NCBI GenBank assembly: GCA_951406725.2
Contig: OX597831.1
Coordinates: 3,410,001 to 3,474,000 of the forward strand
Length of the DNA: 64,000 bases
Direction of reading: 5' to 3'
From: Octopus vulgaris
Lineage: Eukaryota
Made by a program: the position numbers and the translations under genes. This document shows positions 13,932-62,012 of the stretch, one piece after another. The first letter of the stretch is position 1. Every line of letters starts with the position of its first letter. The notes under the pieces were generated by a model. The model was given only the letters and a program-made list of their open reading frames with translations, was not told the origin of the DNA and ran no database searches.

Positions 13932-14625
13932 TTAACGTCTGTTGTCCATGCTGGCATGGGTTGGACGGTTTGACCAGGGCTGGTAAGCTTCAAGGCTGTA
14001 CCAGACTCCAGTCTGATTCAGCATGGTTTTTCTATGGCCGGATGCCCTTCCTAATGCCAGTCACTCCACGAGTGTAATGGGTGCTTTTATGTGCCACTGG
14101 CACAGGTGCCACTTTCATAGCACCAGTATCTGCCATGACTGTGACTTTACTTGGCTTGATGAGTCTTCTTCTCAAGCATGACATTATGCCAAAGGTCTCG
14201 GTCATTGTCTCTGTGAGGCCCAAAACTCGAAAGGAATTCAGCCACTTAGCCTTCATGAGGCCCAAAGCTTGAAAGGTGTTCCTTATGTGCCATTTACATA
14301 ACACCAGCATTGGCCATGATTACAATTTCATTTGGCTCGACAGGTCTTCTCAAGCACAGCATTTCGGCAAAGGTCTTGGTCACTAGTCATTACCTTTGTG
14401 AGGCTCAAAGTTCGAAGATAATTCTCCACCCCTTTGTCCCTGGGTCTACCTCTACCACAGGTTCCCTCCACAGTTAGAGACTGGCACTTCTTTACACAGC
14501 TGTCCTTGTCCATATGCATCACATGACCATACCAGCACAATCGTCTCTCTTGCACACCACATCTGATGCCTCTGATGCCCAACCTTTCTCTCAAGATGCT
14601 TACACTCTGTTGAACATGCACCCTG
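13765..14625 (-). mobile_element. 5'-truncated RTE LINE (RT C-terminus plus 3' UTR) with expanded (GAT/GGT)n tail
   Basis: Peptide LRERLGIRGIRCGVQERRLCWYGHVMHMDKDSCVKKC...GRGRPR is homologous to the 47372-47710 ORF. Confidence 0.85.
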
Positions 14626-14679
14626 ACATTGCACAGACATACAGACACACACACATAGACATACATACATACATATATA

Positions 14680-35143: not shown

Positions 35144-35632
35144 CCATAAGATGTACCTGGTGTAAGCTATGGACACATAAGAGGTGCAGCAATATCAGAG
35201 GAGTTTTAACAGGGAAAATAGATTTTGTGTGTGGAAGGTGTACAGGTACAATTAAGACTAAAAATGTACAGAAAATAGATTTCATCATATGCCGGGGGTC
35301 GTGGTCGTGAATTAGAAGTAGTCAAAAGCTACCATTTCCTAGGTGACTAAGTCGGTAGTGGGGGTGGTGGGTGGTGGATGCTCCGAGAGCATAGCTGTTA
35401 AATAAGAATAGGCTGGGCAAAGTTCAGAGAGCTCCTACCTCTGCTTGTAACAAAGGGCCTCTCACTCAAAGTAAAAAGCAGACTGTATGATGCCTGTGTG
35501 TGAACAGCCATGTTACATGGCAGTGAAACAAGGGCCGTGACTGCTGAGGACATGTGTAGGCTTGTAAGAAATGAAGCTAGTATGCTTTGCTGGATATTCA
35601 ATGTCCATGTGCATGCACGACAGAGTGCAAGC

Positions 35633-35895
35633 TTATTGACATTATTTACATTATTTAACGGATATATTTGTCCTCATCTTGTTTGTTAACACAACGTTTC
35701 AGCTGATATACTCTCCAGCCTTCTTCAGGTGTTTGGAGGAATTTCGAACCTGGGTTCTCATTCCTAAGATATTCTTCGATATTATTTTTATTATTATTGT
35801 TCAAGTTACTGATTGGAATTGAACTCGGAATCTTGGGGTTAGTAGCCCACGCTGTTAACCACTATGCCATATGCCCGTGGCCATATGGCATAGTG
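35633..35895 (-). mobile_element. tRNA-headed, hammerhead-containing SINE-like element
   Basis: Head gggcatatggcatagtggtt...gagttcaattcc (A and B boxes), hammerhead at 35688-35733, (aaataatgt)n tail. Inserted cleanly into RTE coding sequence. Confidence 0.75.
35688..35733 (-). ncRNA. Minimal type-I hammerhead ribozyme
   Basis: AACAC-CUGAAGA-A-GGCUG(10-nt loop)CAGCU-GAAA-CG-UU-GUGUU. Stems I and II pair and stem III is the palindrome AACGUU. Confidence 0.8.
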
Positions 35896-37055
35896 TAAGT
35901 TTCCTGAGAGAAAAGTTGGATATAAGAGACATCAGATGTGGTGTGTAAGAGAGACAACTGTGCTGGCATGGTCATGTGATGTGTATGGACGAGGACAGCT
36001 GTGTGAGGAAGTGTCGCACTCTAACAGTGGAGGGAACCTGTGGAAGAGGTAGAGCCAGAAAGATGTGGGATGAGGTGGTGAAGCATGATCTTCACATATT
36101 GGGCCTCATGGAGGCAACGGCAAGTGGCAGAGACCTTCGGCGATATGCTGTGCTTGAGAAGACCCGTCAAGCCAAAGTAGGTTGTAGTTGTGGCTGAAGC
36201 CAGTGTCGCATGACTGGCCTGTTAAAAGCACCCTTCAAATGTTGGGTGATATGCTGTGCTTGTGAAGACCTGTCGAGTCAAGTGAAATCGTAGTCATAGC
36301 TGATGTCTGACTGGCATCCGTGCCGGTGGCATGTAAAAAGCAGTATTTAAATATCAGGCCTCACAGAGGCAGTGACAGGTGACTGAGACCTTTGGCAATA
36401 TATAGTGCTTCTGTAGACCTGTCAAGCCAAATGAGACCATAGTCAGGACCGATGCTGGTGTCAAGTCAATGGCACGTAAAAAACACCCACTATACTCTCA
36501 GAGTGGTTGGCATTACGAAGGGCATCCAGCTGTAGAAACCTTGCAAAATCAGATGGGAACCTTGTACAGCTCCCTGGCTTGCCAGTTTTCAGTCAAACCA
36601 TCCAACCCATGCCAGTATGGAAAATGGACGTTAAATGATGATGAGGATGATGATGACATGTAGTAAAAAAAATATATCATAAAAGAAGAAAAATGCACAC
36701 AATTTATATATTTTTTATTTAATATATTTTAAAGGATAGAATATTATGATAGTCAATTGGTTTTGTGTTTCACTAATCATTGAAATTGGTGAAAATATTG
36801 TAATTTCATGTGTTCTTATGAATTTTTTAATCCATGTTGCTTGTGTGAGAGTTTGTTTGTAAATGAAAGAGCATTAAGAAAAAATCTAAGGCGAGATAAT
36901 TAGTGTTTGTTATTATTTGAGACGTATATGTGATGATGATGATGATGATGTGTGTGTGTATTTATATATATGTATGTGTGTGTTGGCCATGCCAGTATGA
37001 GTGATTAGTTTGCTTGGCTCCAAATGAATTCTTATAGGAGTTGCACAAGTTTATT

Positions 37056-44482: not shown

Positions 44483-44533
<51 letters not shown>

Positions 44534-44537
44534 TATA

Positions 44538-46351
44538 AGGATTTGGTTGAAGACCAACTGAAGGATACAACCTTCTATTGTGAAATACCCGCAAATATAG
44601 ACCACCACATCATGAAAAAGATCAACAACCTGATTTCAACACACCACAACTCACTTACGGATAATGAAAAAGACTACATCACCAATTTTGAACCAAAACC
44701 CAGCAACTTCTACGGCTTACCAAAAATACACAAATCAAAAAACATTCAACAGGCAGTAAAAGAACAAGAAAGTGAGTACATAAAATTATTACATCCAAAA
44801 GACCTAAAACTTAGACCTATTATAGCTGGTCCAGCATGCCCTACACACCGTCTAAGCAATTTTATTGACATTGTTTTGAAACCACTATGTACTTACATAC
44901 CAAGTTTCATCAGGGATGACATCGACTTCCTGTCCCATCTTCCCAAAACAACAGAAACAAATTCAGTTTTACTAAGTTTTGATGTGGTAAGCCTCTACAC
45001 CAATATTCCACACGATTTAGGAATAAAGGCGATTAAATACTGGTTAGAAAAACATAGAGAAGTGATTCCCAGCAGATTCACAGTGCCATTTATATTAGAC
45101 ACAGTCAAACTTATTCTAGAAAATAACACATTCTTCTTCAATGGAAAGAATTACATCCAAATTAGAGGCACGGCGATGGGAACGAGGTTTGCTCCCGTTT
45201 ACGCCAACTCTGTAATGGGATACTTAGAAGAACAACTCTACCAAGAGGTGGAGGTAAACTATGGCACTGGATTTAGAAAGTATATTGAAAAGGCATGGAA
45301 GAGATACCTAGACGACTGTTTCATAATCTGGACAGAATCTCTAAATACTCTGGAAGAGTTCAATATCCTCTTGAACAACCTACACCCATCTCTCAAATTT
45401 ACAAAGGAGATGAGTAGTACCAAATTACCATTCCTGGATATAATGGTAATTAAAAAAGACACCACCATCACCACAGATATATACTATAAACACACAGACA
45501 CACATCAATACCTAAATTTTAAGTCGTGCCATCCACCACATACAAAACGTAACATCCCATACTGCCTAGCAAGAAGAATTTGTACTATTGTAGAAGATGC
45601 AAATATCAGGAACAAACGCCTAATAGAACTAAGAGAATTTTTGCTCAAACAAAAATACCCATCTCTACTTATAGAAAATGGCATACAGCGGGCTATAAAA
45701 ATACCTATACAACAACTTAGGACAACCCAAGGAAGAGGAAAACAAGAACAAGTAATACCATTCATAGTGACACACAACCCATGTCACCAGAATATCTTCA
45801 ACATTGCCAAAGCAAACCTACCAATCATTGCCCAAAGTAATGAATTAAAAGACATAATCAAGGATCGAGCTATGGTGCTTAGTAAAAGACAGCCTAAAAA
45901 CTTGAAAACATTACTAACAAAGGCAAAATTTGACCTCAGCAACAAAGACCAAACATTCACGGTATCTAAATGCAATGATAGCCGATGTGGCACATGCCAA
46001 TTCATACATACCGGTCAATATATAAACACAAAAACCGGGAAAATATTCACAAACGCGAATATGAACTGCAAAAGCAGAAATTTAATTTACTGCATCAAAT
46101 GCCCAAATTGTGAAGAAATATATGTAGGTCAGACGGGAAACGCACTATTAGAACGCTCACATGTACACCGGCAACAGATTAGAGACCCAGAGGTCCGTCA
46201 GATACCTTTGAGTAACCACCTAGCAACATGTGGTCGGAAAATATATATAATATTTCCATTCTACAAATTACACAGCCCAAGTGAAATCGAGAGGAAAATC
46301 AGAGAAAAGAATTTTATTGATAAATTCGAACCCAAGCTAAATAAGCAATAA
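44538..46351 (+). CDS. Penelope-like retroelement polyprotein (RT plus GIY-YIG endonuclease), 5'-truncated, no internal stops
   Basis: FYGLPKIHK, LRPII, SFDVVSLYTNIP, GTAMG, RYLDD, FLD, linker CNDSRCGTC, and the GIY-YIG variant NLIYCIKCPNCEEIYVGQT...ER..HR. Confidence 0.93.
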
Positions 46352-46668
46352 TAATAATACTTAGAGGTATTACTTCCACTGCTACGACCATGACCACTAA
46401 CAACAACAACAATACTAAAGGTGATCAAGACGAAGATAGCAGGAAAATTATCTTATTTAGGGTTAAAAGTTCTATTGCCACCACCATCACCACTAGCAAC
46501 AATAATTAAGGTGCTGACAATGATGATGATGACAATTGAAATATAAAAATATAAAAATCTCTGACAAAGGATATTTACAACATTTCTAAAAATAACCCAA
46601 CAATTGCTGCTTCGGCCAGGGTCAAGATACAGGACTCTTGACCTGTCCAACAAAGCGTGATGCCTAAA

Positions 46669-46782
46669 CCAATCAGCTCAACCAACCAATCAGCTTAAGT
46701 AATTGAGTGATACTACACACTGATTGGTCAGAATACAGTTTGCAAAACCTAGCACTCTGGAGCCTACCCAGCTGTATTTATA
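46669..46782 (+). promoter_or_regulatory. Putative Pol II promoter in the PLE pseudo-LTR
   Basis: CCAAT at 46669 and 46686, ATTGG at 46723, TATTTATA at 46775. CCAAT, ATTGG and TATTTAA are retained in the 61.6-61.75 kb copy. Confidence 0.5.
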
Positions 46783-46845
46783 GCACAGAATCACTCATCT
46801 TGCTACAGTCAAAAATTGTGAAGCATGACTGTCAACACTACTACA

Positions 46846-46890
46846 TGAACCCGAAGATTGCAGAATTCAATGCATGAAAGTACTAGTTCA
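46846..46890 (+). ncRNA. Minimal type-I hammerhead motif (U4C core variant)
   Basis: UGAAC-CCGAAGA-UUGCA(loop)UGCAU-GAAA-GUAC-UA-GUUCA, with palindromic stem III AGUACU. Confidence 0.75.
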
Positions 46891-47030
46891 ATCAGAATGA
46901 ATATTTAACATTCTACTATTTCATTTTATTTTATTAAATTATAATATATTATCTTATAATATATCATTATAAGATTGTAAATAAAATGTGAAAATCAGAC
47001 AAGGTTGGAATTCTTTTTATTAATATATAT

Positions 47031-47738
47031 ATCATCATCATCGTTTAACGTCCGCTTTCCGCGCTAGCACGGGTTGGACGGTTTGACCGGGTCTGGGAAG
47101 CCAGGGGCCGCTCCAGGCTCCAGTCTGAATCTGGCAGAGTTTCTACGGCTGGATGCCCTTCCTAACGCCAACCACTCCGTGAGTGGATTGGGTGCTTTTT
47201 ACGTGCCACCTGCACAGGGGCCGGAGGGTCCGGCATCGTCACGATCGGATTCGAGCATTTTAACGTGTCAGCGGCACGGGGGCAACGAGGTCCGGGGTAC
47301 TTTGGGGATTGGGGTATTTTGGGGATCCAGGGTACTTTGGGGATCCGGGGTACTTTGGGGATCCGGGGTACTTAGAATGGGTAGGGGGTACTTAGAATGG
47401 GTAGGGGGGTACTTAGAATGGGTAGGGGGTATGTGGAATTGCTGCAGAAAGCAGCCCGGGTCTTTGTAGTCACAGCATATCTCCAGAGATCTCGGTCCTT
47501 CGCCATTGCCTCAGTGAGGCCCAATGCTCTGAGGTCATGCTTGACCACCTCATCCCATGTCTTCCTGGGTCTACCTCTCCCCCTGATACCTTCAACTGTT
47601 TGGGAGTGGCACTTCTTCACACATCTCTCTTCATCCATCCGCAGCACATGACCATACCATCGCAAGCGTCGCTCTTGCACACCACATCTGATGCTTCTTA
47701 TATCCAGCATTTCTCTCAGGATACTTACACTCTGTTTT
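47031..47738 (-). mobile_element. 3' segment of the full-length RTE (RT C-terminus, 3' UTR minisatellite, (GAT)n tail)
   Basis: Begins aaaacagagtgtaag, exactly where the plus-strand ORF breaks off at 53056-53065. Encodes RRLRWYGHVLRM...GRGRPRKTW. Confidence 0.9.
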
Positions 47739-50167: not shown

Positions 50168-53064
50168 ATGTCCACTGCTAACACCAGCTCCTGCCCACGG
50201 CGTGGTCAGGTTGGAAGAGAGATCAAAAGAAAAATACCACGAAAACTATCACCACCACTACAACCCTCCTCTTCTCAGGCGCCGAATCCCCCTGTCCCCC
50301 CCACATCTCCTTCCCAGTTTTCAGAGTTGGCACTATCAATGTTGGTACATTGACAGGCAAGTCTAGTGAGATTGTAGAGATGCTAGAGAGAAGACAGGTT
50401 GATGTATGCTGCATACAAGAGGTAAGATGGAGAGATGCTTCGGCTAGGGTCCTCACGGGCAAGGCACTTAGATACAAACTCTACTGGCAAGGTAACGCGG
50501 AAGGTGTAGGGGGTGTAGGCATTCTCCTTGCGGAGGAATGGGTGGATAAGGTCATAGAGGTTGTCAGGGTTTGTGATAGAGTGCTTAAGCTCAGGTTGGT
50601 CCTACAGAGTGGCACAGCTATGATTATCTCAGCCTATGCCCCACAAGCGGGACTACCAAATGATCAGAAGGACAACTTTTATGATACCCTTCTGCAGGCT
50701 ACTTCAAAGACTAGTAACAAGGACCTCATCTTTGTAGGTGGAGATTTTAACGGGCATGTTGGGCGGGAATCGGGTATCTTCACTGGGGTACATGGTGGAT
50801 ATGGTATTGGCACCAGAAACGATGAGGGAACTAGACTACTGGAATTCTGTGATGCATGTAACCTTTCAATCTGCAACACTAACTTCAAGAAGCCAGTCTG
50901 CCACCTTATAACTTATCAGTCAGGAGACTCCGCTAGCCAAATAGACTTCATCCTCACCAGACAACGGGATGCAGGGTTGCTCTTGAATACAAAGACCCTC
51001 CCGGGTGAAGAATGTATCCCTCAGCATAGACTAATCATCAGTGACTTTAAGCTTGAGGCCAGAAGGACTCCAAGAAACAAACCAATCCAGAAAAGAAGGA
51101 TTTGGAGGCTAAAGAACCCTTCGCATGGTCAGAAATTTAGGGACATACTCATCAAGAAATTTGATGAGAGGGAAGAGGAGCTTCAGACGTCAGACATAGA
51201 AGGTAGCTGGGAATTCCTACGGGACAGCTTGTTGAGTGCCACAGACCAAGTTTGTGGATGGTGCAAAGTCCCTTCCAGACCTAGAATTACGTGGTGGTGG
51301 AATAGTGCAGTAGATAAAGCCATCTGTGAAAAGAGACGGGCCTGGAAAGCCTGGAAGGAGGGGGCAGCAGGGAACTGTACCAGATAGCCAAAAGGGAGGC
51401 TGGGCGGCAGGTATACATTGCCAAAGATGTAGCAGAAAAGAAGAAGTTTGCCAATGTCCAGCGTCGCGAGGATCAAAGAGCTGAAGTATTTCGGATTGCC
51501 AGACAGTGTGTCAGAGAAAATAGCGATGTTATAGGAGAGAAATGTGTCCGCATGGATGATGGGGCACTTGCTTTTACTACTAGTGAAAAGAAAGAGGCCT
51601 GGAGAAGCCATTATGAAAGACTGCTAAATGAGGAGAATGAATGGGAGGAGGAGAGCCTGCCAAATGTTGACCCAGTAGAGGGACCAGCTACCCGAATAGA
51701 CAGCTCCCTTGTAGATAAGGCAATTAAGGATATGAAACCAGGCAAAGCCCCTGGCCTATCAGGAATCACTGCTGAGATGCTTAAAACAGCTGGCTATGTG
51801 GGCCATGCCATAGTCACCCGCATTGTAAACCAGGTAGTTCACAATGGAGCCATACCCAATGACTGGTGCAGCAGTACCATAGTCAACTGCTACAAGGGTA
51901 AGGGTGATGCTCTAGATAGAAATAACTACAGAGGTATCAAACTGTTGGACCAGGTGATGAAGGTCTCAGAGAAGGTCATAACCAATCTCATTAGGAGAGA
52001 ATTTGTTTAGATGAAATGCAGTTCGGTTTTGTACCAGGTAGAAGCACCACTGATGCTATATTCCTGGTCCGACAACTGCAGGAGAAGTACCTAGCTAAAG
52101 ATAAACCCCTCTACATAGCTTTTGTAGACTTGGAGAAAGCCTTTGACAGGGTTCCCCGTTCCCTTATCTGGTGGTCGATGCGGAAACTGGAGATTGAAGA
52201 ATGGCTAATAAGGGCTGTACAGGCTCTATACAGAGAGGCTGTTAGCAAGGTTAGGATTGGCAACGAATATAGTGAAGAATTCCGAGTAGAAGTAGGTGTG
52301 CACCAGGGCTCAGCCCTCAGTCCCCTTTTGTTCATCATAGTACTTCAAGCAATAACAGAGGAATTCAAAACGGGATGCCCCTGGGAGCTCCTCTATGCCG
52401 ATGACCTAGCTCTCATAGCAGAATCACTACCGGAACTAGAAGAGAAATTTCGGGTATGGAAGCAAGGGTTGGAATCAAAGGGCCTTAGAATAAATGTAGC
52501 AAAGACCAAAGTATTAGTAAGCAGCAAGAGGTACTCAACACACATCCCTTCGGGTAGGTGGCCCTGCTCAACCTGTAGGAAAGGTACAGGTAGAAACTCC
52601 ATAAGATGCACCCAATGTAAGTTATGGACACATAAGAGGTGCAGCAACATTAAAGGGAAATTAACAGATAAGATAGCTTTCATGTGCGGCAGATGCACAG
52701 GGACAATAGACACAACAGACACTCAGAAAACAGATTCCATCACACTCCAGGGAGAGAAACTAGAAGTAGTTGATAGTTTCCGCTACCTGGGAGACCAAGT
52801 TAGTAGCGGAGGTGGATGCACAGAGAGTATCACCACTAGAATACGAATAGCCTGGGCAAAGTTCAGAAAGCTCCTACCCCTACTGGCAACAAAAGGCCTC
52901 TCCCTCAGAGCAAAAGGTAGATTATATGATGCATGTGTGCGAACTGCCATGCTTCACGGTAATGAAACATGGGCTGTGACTGCAGAAGACATGCGTAGAC
53001 TTGAAAGAAATGAAGCTAGCATGATCCGCTGGATGTGTAGTGTCAGTGTGCACGCAAAACAGAG

Positions 53065-53065
<1 letters not shown>
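50168..53065 (+). pseudogene. RTE-clade LINE ORF (APE endonuclease, RT, PHD finger) with 2-3 frameshifts
   Basis: APE motifs NVGTL, CIQEVRW, SAYAPQ, GDFNGHVG, SQIDFIL. RT motifs KAPG, NYRGIKLL, QFGF, FVDLEKAFD, GVHQGSALSP, YADD, FRYLG. Frameshifts near 51360 and 52000. Confidence 0.93.
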
Positions 53066-60716: not shown

Positions 60717-61102
60717 GTGTGTGTGTGTGTGTATGTGTGTGTGTGTGTATATGTATGCTACATGGCAGCGAAACATGGGCCGGCTGTGACTGCTGAGGAC
60801 ATGTGTAAGCTTGCAAGAAATGAAGCTAATATGCTCTGCTGGATGTGTAATGTCAGTGTGCCTACATGACAGAATGTAAGCTACCTGAGAGAAAAGTTGG
60901 ATGTAAGAAGCGTCAGATGTGTTGTGTATGAATAAAGGACTTATCAGAATGTTCACTTTGGTAAGTATATACTAAGCCTTGGGTAAGAAGCCGATCAAAG
61001 CCTTGTGAGTGGATTTGGTAGATGGAAATTGAAAGAAGCCCATCGTATATGTTTGTGTGTCTGTGTTTGTCCCTCCAACATCGCTTGACAACTGATGCCA
61101 AC

Positions 61103-61971
61103 AGCAAATTGGAGACTCAGATGTCTGTGAGATACCTTTGAGTAACCATCTAGCAACATTCGGTTGGAACATATTTATATTTCCATTCTACAAACTACAC
61201 AGTCCAAGAGAAATTGCAAGAAAAATCAGAGAAAAAACTTTATTAATAAATTCCAACCGAAGCTAAATAAACAATAATACTAATACTTAGGGGTACTATT
61301 TCTACTGCTACAACCACTAACACTAACAAAAACAACAATACTAAAGGTGAATACTGATGAAGATAGCAGGAAAATACTAGTTAAGTCAAGAGAAAAGTCA
61401 GTAAAAAATAATCTTATACTTGGGTTTGAAGTTCTATTACCACAGCTACTCCTACCACCACCAACGACAACAACAATGACAACAATAACAAAGGAGATGA
61501 TAATGGGGATGATGATAATTGAAATGTAAAAATCTCTGGGAAATGTTGTTTACAACATTTCTAAGAATAGCCCAACAATTACCGCTTTGGCCAGGGTCAA
61601 AATACAGGTCTCTTGTCATGTTCAACAAACTGTGATGCCTAAACCAAACACCAATCAACTTAAGTAATTCAGTAAAATCCCACACTGATTGGTCAGAATA
61701 CAGTTTGCAAAAATTAACATTCTTCAGTCTATACAAATGTATTTAAGGAACACAGTTTAGCCATTTTACTACAGTCGTAGATTGTAAAACATAACTGTCA
61801 CCACTACTACATGAACCTGAAGATTGCATAGTTTAATGCAGGAAAGTACTAGTTCAATCAGAATAGATATTTAATATTCTATCATTTCATATTATCATTT
61901 CATCTTATATTATGTTGTTACAAAATTGTAAATAAAACGTGAAATTCAAACAAAGTTGGAATTTCTTTCAG

Positions 61972-61973
<2 letters not shown>
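61103..61973 (+). mobile_element. Second, diverged PLE copy (GIY-YIG C-terminus plus pseudo-LTR)
   Basis: Aligns by eye with 46172-47022 (IPLSNHLAT...FPFYKLHSP). Confidence 0.88.
61812..61856 (+). ncRNA. Minimal type-I hammerhead ribozyme with consensus core
   Basis: UGAAC-CUGAAGA-UUGCAU(AGUUUA)AUGCAG-GAAA-GUAC-UA-GUUCA. Confidence 0.82.

Positions 61974-62012
<39 letters not shown>

Follow-up and report, generated by a model that had tools for sequence, protein, structure and literature searches.

A tRNA-derived module, likely a Pol III promoter, in the terminal repeats of a coding Penelope-like element of Octopus vulgaris

Results

A solo terminal repeat nested in an RTE-type LINE

The window analyzed here, a 64,000-nt stretch of the Octopus vulgaris genome (contig OX597831.1, forward-strand positions 3,410,001 to 3,474,000), contains a decayed RTE-type LINE fragment on the plus strand at about 35,150-36,600, which hosts a short element on the minus strand. 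Further decayed RTE-type fragments were seen on the plus strand near 14,313-14,631, 47,457-47,731, 52,616-53,065, and 60,730-60,931. Sequence inspection and comparison with the family identified the nested element as a frameshifted solo terminal repeat (pLTR) of a Penelope-like element (PLE), with about 86% identity to the family majority sequence. The element is bordered by two 11-bp copies of the target site, at 35624-35634 on its 3' side and at 35892-35902 on its 5' side, which are identical at 9/11 positions. Since the site occurs only once in three other RTE copies, these flanks (agtgcaagctt/agtgtaagttt), described in a first-pass annotation as imperfect repeats, represent a genuine target-site duplication.

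At its 5' side the element begins with an inverted, plus-strand copy of the first 14 nt of its head (35882-35895, duplicating 35860-35873). This duplication had been noticed before and was confirmed in the sequence; 4 nt at its outer end are shared with the target-site duplication as microhomology. All following parts are on the minus strand. A short leader (35877-35883) reaches to the putative transcription start, since the 5' ends of family copies peak 6-7 nt ahead of the head. The tRNA-derived head (35801-35876) contains an A box (35859-35869) and a B box (35815-35826) and is followed by an (AAT)n linker (35781-35800), the length of which differs greatly among copies; both boxes and the linker are present as first described. 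The conserved middle segment (35734-35780) contains the first in-frame ATG (35759-35761), the presumed start codon, of an 835-aa reverse transcriptase (RT)-endonuclease ORF, and a B-box-like motif (35738-35750). The earlier proposal that this motif is a second promoter box did not hold up: it is coding sequence inside the Penelope ORF, and the canonical CC after GGTTCGANN is missing from the window copy as well as from the family. A minimal type I hammerhead with a predicted cleavage site (35688-35733) is followed by the 3' part of the pLTR (35635-35687), which contains 9-nt repeats. The repeats had been taken for an (aaataatgt)n SINE tail. Because the ORF opens before the hammerhead, these in-frame repeats, together with an extension of about 35 nt by which the family runs further, are N-terminal coding sequence of the Penelope protein. 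In the window copy the frame breaks shortly after the ATG, and the copy stops at the earlier of the two end points seen in the family, so that the extension is absent.

A second Penelope-like family is also represented in the window. A 5'-truncated copy of this very young family was observed at about 44,530-47,032 (+), and an older fragment at 61,522-62,002 (+) matches the 3' part of locus L400 of this family at about 80% identity. The search returned 1,409 candidates for the young family, and all 40 scored copies were essentially identical over 801 nt, a degree of sequence identity that points to a family that was probably active recently. Locus L400 has an open frame of at least 983 aa with a Cys-rich linker, which is Neptune-like. 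The young family served as the same-genome control for the T-run counts given below.

Linkage of the unit to a protein-coding Penelope element

Two of the first 30 copies inspected lay directly 3' of Penelope-like coding sequence. A search with this coding part placed the unit after the endonuclease: at loci selected by the endonuclease, the head was found about 45 nt past the probe in 29/30 cases, one of which was the query's own locus. When loci were chosen by the 5' part of the ORF, a sense-oriented hammerhead was located just upstream in 11/30, and three of these extended to the head. One locus (L202) is a partial tandem composed of endonuclease, repeat, full ORF, and repeat. Moreover, pLTRs at both ends, partial tandems, and an inverted 5'-truncated arm were all found (L192, L200, L202, and the insertion survey). 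It is therefore very probable that the unit of head, linker, and hammerhead is the pLTR of an autonomous Penelope-like element. The element in the window is a dead stand-alone terminal repeat of this abundant protein-coding element.

The family majority sequence has a monomer of 2,661 nt with a single ORF of 835 aa. The first in-frame ATG is 124 nt past the head start, ahead of the hammerhead, and the stop codon is 29 nt ahead of the next head. The family protein gave an RVT_1 match above the Pfam cut-off and had 76 homologues, many of 790-885 aa, while the search of solved structures returned only weak, generic matches to RTs and telomerase. For the endonuclease, Pfam gave no match on the piece that was scanned; from the pattern VYSIPC..C..Y.GET.R with histidine, judged by eye, we take the C-terminal domain to be a GIY-YIG endonuclease. 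A Penelope-type RT and a C-terminal endonuclease are thus joined in one ORF. According to PMC8557442, a Cys-rich, zinc-finger-like linker between RT and endonuclease is present in Neptune and Nematis and not in Penelope/Poseidon. This linker is absent from the family translation, which places the family in the Penelope/Poseidon clade by the linker criterion.

Contigs of four organisms span the endonuclease end, head, and hammerhead, and in two of them single contigs bridge the stop codon and the head. In the relative P0005 from ENA, the hammerhead-encoded peptide is also in frame. Several relatives start at a Met located 3' of the hammerhead, where the octopus family has Leu. In both the octopus family and P0005 the frame opens at an ATG ahead of the hammerhead and includes it; a ribozyme cut would part this ATG from the remaining ORF.

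Copy number and mode of insertion

The unit is a high-copy repeat, as a copy-number check confirmed: 5,374 first-look candidates were obtained, and the family has two 3' end points. Three motifs had 1,149, 3,240, and 5,407 exact matches, and their reversed controls had 0. As 6/66 unselected arms match exactly, the count of 5,407 scales to a family size of very roughly 60,000 arms; about 4 arms were found in 200 kb of arbitrary genome.

Both orientations occurred inside 54/86 insertions. In 44/52 two-tailed insertions the extension was present at one end only, which corresponds to the 30-40-nt one-sided tail of Penelope insertions. The 3' ends were bimodal, with 84/170 and 72/170 arms at the two end points. 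In addition, duplications of at least 10 bp flanked 34/80 insertions and only 1/80 control positions. The family is mobilized by Penelope machinery, as the first-pass annotation had proposed in place of LINE machinery; the linkage to coding loci and the insertion signatures both bear this out.

The suggestion that head and hammerhead move as one unit was evaluated in 98 head-bearing arms. The downstream part was located at most 700 nt from the head in 81/98, and head and hammerhead variants were linked in haplotypes common to 29 coding and 71 solo arms, in agreement with that suggestion. In the other 17/98 arms the hammerhead part was not found within 700 nt; most of these end in (AAT)n and continue as other sequence, and our guess is that they result from later insertions into the (AAT)n microsatellite. 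At three loci (L145, L113, and L226) other repeat-like coding sequence was observed after the (AAT)n linker, perhaps from a microsatellite-targeting LINE that inserted there. These 17 arms, and the 22/94 tail-selected arms that end in the linker, are what could be cited for a coincidental nesting of two unrelated repeats, one tRNA-like and one with a hammerhead. Against thousands of colinear copies, variants linked across the linker, and one target-site duplication round the whole unit, this explanation can practically be dismissed.

A further explanation is that the unit is an independent non-autonomous SINE, as first annotated, which combines a tRNA head with a Penelope end, spreads from solo copies through Pol III transcription, and borrows the Penelope protein, the coding copies having obtained the head later or by recombination. 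Short copies do far outnumber coding ones: coding copies make up about 7-10% of arms, more than 100 nt of ORF was found upstream in 7/94 tail-selected arms, and a second count gave 0/30. Solo copies also retain the whole promoter and binding region, so that some could serve as templates, and the upstream context of many heads is inverted rather than coding (27+6 vs. 19). However, the head is on practically all coding copies (29/30 loci) and is also present at the 5' repeat. Both haplotypes are shared by solo and coding copies, and the two groups are alike in variant frequencies and divergence. No solo-specific variant was detected between 29 ORF-linked and 71 solo arms, with no position at p < 0.07. 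Furthermore, the loss of terminators along the ORF, described below, would stay unexplained. Therefore, we consider an independent SINE quite improbable; the unit is better described as the terminal repeat of a coding element.

A tRNA-derived head between stop codon and hammerhead

The head was compared with 30 tRNA loci of six isotypes, with 63 candidates scored. Its nearest match was tRNA-Arg(TCT) of the same genome (z 8.9; 50/70 aligned bases identical), and among the isotypes sampled this tRNA is tentatively named as the parent. The A and B boxes have been kept, and the cloverleaf has been lost, as the head does not fold into one. ARAGORN reported no tRNA in the window element. Rfam searches at E values up to 5-10 returned neither a tRNA nor a hammerhead in the window or in a better copy (L002), so that the check for the hammerhead proposed in the first-pass annotation came back negative. 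Processing of the head by an RNase P-type activity was considered and ruled out, since there is no cloverleaf and the 5' ends of copies peak at -7/-6 rather than at +1.

The coding strands of relatives from metagenomes (80 loci) contained no pair of A and B boxes. Where detected, the hammerheads of these relatives were mostly 46-132 nt past the stop codon, with one at 410. The distance between stop codon and hammerhead in the octopus family, minus the head and (AAT)n, is approximately that of the relatives, which suggests that head and (AAT)n are a captured tRNA-derived insert.

The hammerhead and its predicted cut

In the window copy, stem I is formed by 35733-35729 and 35692-35688, and stem II by 35720-35716 and 35705-35701. 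The core consists of CUGAAGA (35728-35722), an extra A (35721), and GAAA (35700-35697); stem III is a 2-bp palindrome, and the cut is predicted after GUU at 35693. The minimum free energy fold of the window copy yields stems I and II. The earlier call of an intact minimal hammerhead was thus right with regard to the core, the palindromic stem III, and the GUU cut site, but the copy is not pristine, with a G-U pair at 10.1-11.1. Across 170 arms this pair was G-C in 116 and G-U in 33, and position 7 was the sole non-CpG core position that varied widely (120 U, 46 A). The arms showed the features of the minimal type I class, namely the CUGANGA and GAAA core, an extra base before 10.1, G10.1-C11.1, a palindromic stem III, and an NUH cleavage triplet. 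We also considered whether the G-U pair at 10.1-11.1 marks a subfamily tied to a loop variant; no linkage was found (p 0.6), and CpG decay is likelier. In a related Penelope family of another organism (L313, L319, L358, and L370), G-U is fixed at 10.1-11.1, so the wobble may be tolerated.

The hammerhead motifs of relatives were near-identical. Moreover, PMC4209133 describes the traits of the minimal hammerheads of PLE pLTRs. The octopus family shares with them the extra nucleotide between 9 and 10.1, G10.1-C11.1, the palindromic 15.2-16.2, and the free position 7, and apart from the G-U pair of the window copy no essential difference was apparent from that text.

Only 3/94 tail-selected arms began at most 3 nt from the predicted cut. 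The ribozyme cut was therefore ruled out as the 5' end of the copies, and the cut RNA is not the usual template. Raw RNA-seq reads of three runs showed no pile-up of RNA ends at the predicted cut site.

5' ends of copies cluster just ahead of the head

Of the tail-selected arms, 44 extended to the head; 23 of these ended between -8 and +8 of the head start, including 12 at -7/-6, of which two resemble one duplicated locus. The truncation rate was 0.055 per nt at the head start, compared with 0.006 within the head and 0.005 in the sequence directly upstream, about 10-fold over background. The same cluster of 5' ends was obtained from an independent sample of 71 B-box-selected arms. The cluster is located 13-14 nt ahead of the A box, which is the distance expected for Pol III starts.

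The clustering can also be accommodated by an ordinary Pol II-driven Penelope, in which the tRNA-derived SINE or pseudogene is a passenger in the terminal repeat and the end cluster reflects a Pol II start or fold-back at a palindrome. Penelope pLTRs are reported to contain promoters (PMC6765202). The start-site cluster itself fits Pol II as well as Pol III, and the palindromic start region could favor fold-back junctions; when junctions were judged by eye, symmetrical inversions were seen at the palindrome in approximately one-third of the B-box-selected arms. On the other hand, ends at -7/-6 were also found in asymmetric junctions and against unrelated flank, and since there are many such junctions, the local palindrome cannot explain all of these ends. 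In addition, the A and B boxes were retained though the cloverleaf was lost, a further point against this explanation.

In raw RNA-seq reads from three runs of one study on the same or a related species, with library strandedness unchecked, the depths of the two strands were near-equal and no site of molecule starts or ends was detected. The equal depth fits passive read-through of old copies. A search across sequencing runs listed no RNA run that carries the element.

T-run terminators are depleted from the sense strand

The sense strand of the family majority monomer, which was built from copies about 8-12% diverged and on which all terminator statistics rest, contains no TTTT, as opposed to 2.9 expected by codon permutation (P 0.03; P 0.08 under a Markov null). 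No TTTT site reaches 12% of copies, and 65 decayed family copies still have just 0.31 TTTT per kb. The transcribed strand is accordingly free of T-run terminators, as a Pol III unit should be. The TTTT test had been set down beforehand, and by itself its support is modest. A post hoc count of windows with 4 T in 5 nt gave 3 on the 2.66-kb sense strand vs. 12.9 expected (P 0.0005, z -2.9).

The same-genome control, the young Penelope-like family, is equal in T content and had 12 TTTT and 39 T-dense windows, as expected for its composition. In the relatives, 51 of the 80 loci had an open frame of at least 350 aa and were compared (29 were dropped); TTTT was present in 50/51 frames, the lowest z was -2.0, and the lowest density of T-dense windows was 3.2 per kb vs. 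1.2 in the octopus family. The one frame without TTTT (L294) has no tRNA head, a case that speaks for an ordinary Pol II element.

A-rich windows were under-represented too (127 vs. 147 expected, z -2.6), which indicates some general homopolymer avoidance. Together with the P value of 0.03 for TTTT alone, this speaks for a Pol II element whose lack of T-runs arose from homopolymer avoidance, RNA processing, or chance. However, T-dense windows were reduced by about 77% and A-dense windows by 14%, C- and G-dense windows were not reduced, and neither the same-genome control nor the 51 relatives matched the loss of T-dense windows. Taking these counts with the promoter evidence above, we regard the Pol II explanation as unlikely, with roughly one chance in four. 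Counts of poly(A) signals were also tried as a discriminator between Pol II and Pol III and were uninformative.

Discussion

The reading that we favor, at a probability of roughly 60%, is that the family is a Pol III-driven autonomous Penelope with SINE-like solo repeats, and that the tRNA-derived module is the likely promoter of the 2.7-kb element. Transcription by Pol III is likely because the T-runs that stop Pol III have been lost across the element, and the 5'-end cluster and the terminator loss are two independent signs that suggest use of the promoter. A fuller version of this proposal, that the element switched to Pol III by capturing a tRNA promoter, had its 2.5-kb ORF recoded, is translated from uncapped RNA, and spread tens of thousands of solo repeats, seems to us evenly balanced between right and wrong.

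In most respects the element resembles the Penelope/Poseidon PLEs, as represented by Anolis Poseidon PAc (PMC11167929), D. virilis Penelope, and structural work (PMC8557442). Shared traits are an ORF with RT and C-terminal endonuclease, pLTRs, partial tandems, inverted 5'-truncated arms, and a 30-40-nt tail at one end. A hammerhead that overlaps the ORF start, two 3' end points, and an uncut RNA template are likewise shared (PMC11167929). In contrast, the octopus pLTR begins with a tRNA-derived head with A and B boxes and (AAT)n, absent from the 80 loci of relatives, and its sense strand lacks T-runs, unlike the relatives and the same-genome control. The hammerhead traits, the ORF overlap, and the two 3' end points are thus nothing new, and Penelope elements are already known to have a hammerhead, inversions, and a one-sided tail; what is unusual is the tRNA-derived putative promoter, probably captured, in combination with a terminator-free coding strand.

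Other retroelements share single aspects of this organization. The Sm-alpha and Sj-alpha repeats of Schistosoma (PMC6765202) are short and have a Pol III-type promoter upstream of a hammerhead, but are non-coding tandem repeats reportedly cut to monomers, whereas the octopus unit is the repeat of a coding element and its inserts do not derive from cut RNA. Cassandra, Helenus, and Ajax carry small-RNA-derived sequence within a retroelement terminal repeat, but are described in PMC10886601 as non-autonomous LTR elements without an ORF, whereas the octopus element is an autonomous member of the Penelope class. A full-text literature search, evaluated by titles and abstract openings, returned no paper describing a tRNA-derived promoter or a Pol III promoter in a Penelope element. 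The text and one supplement of the 2026 octopus repeat annotation, parts that do not extend to its sequence library, make no mention of ribozymes (PMC13282606). Repbase, Dfam, or SINEBase may already contain the family as a named entry.

Three octopus SINEs with tRNA-derived heads, OK, OR1, and OR2, were reportedly described by Ohshima and Okada in 1994, and OR1 and OR2 are said to be of Arg origin. The tRNA-derived head is common to these SINEs and the present family, but OR2 is listed as a CORE SINE (PMC4758252), whereas here the body is a Penelope ORF. Overlap with OK or OR1 may exist, as the family is set apart from the known SINEs by description and not by sequence.

We propose the following mechanism. 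A tRNA-Arg-like head followed by an (AAT)n tail would have entered an ancestral Penelope between its stop codon and its hammerhead. Pol III would start just ahead of the head and, once selection had removed the T-run terminators, could continue across the ORF as far as the following repeat. The protein of Anolis Poseidon initiates reverse transcription in vitro at two internal positions of the RNA that lie beyond the uncut hammerhead (PMC11167929), and the octopus protein may begin in the same manner. Priming in the first repeat of the transcript would give a SINE-like solo copy of about 250 nt, the type seen in the window, and priming in the second repeat would give coding copies. The inversion could arise from two cDNAs joined head to head or from fold-back where the start is palindromic. 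As the RNA would be uncapped, the 835-aa ORF would have to be translated in a cap-independent manner.

Pol III promoters in retroelements have been described in non-coding SINEs and in non-autonomous terminal-repeat elements. Transcription of coding retrotransposons is generally attributed to Pol II or, in the case of R2, to Pol I read-through. For annotation, very roughly 60,000 octopus arms would be classed as SINEs by their head, yet they are the terminal repeat of a Penelope element. If the proposal is true, it would show how an autonomous element can give rise directly to a SINE, and it would blur the boundary between the two. A 2.7-kb coding element without Pol III terminators would be an example from nature of an mRNA synthesized by Pol III. 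Furthermore, it would become possible to test whether Penelope elements are translated independently of a cap and what function their hammerhead, so far unexplained, has.
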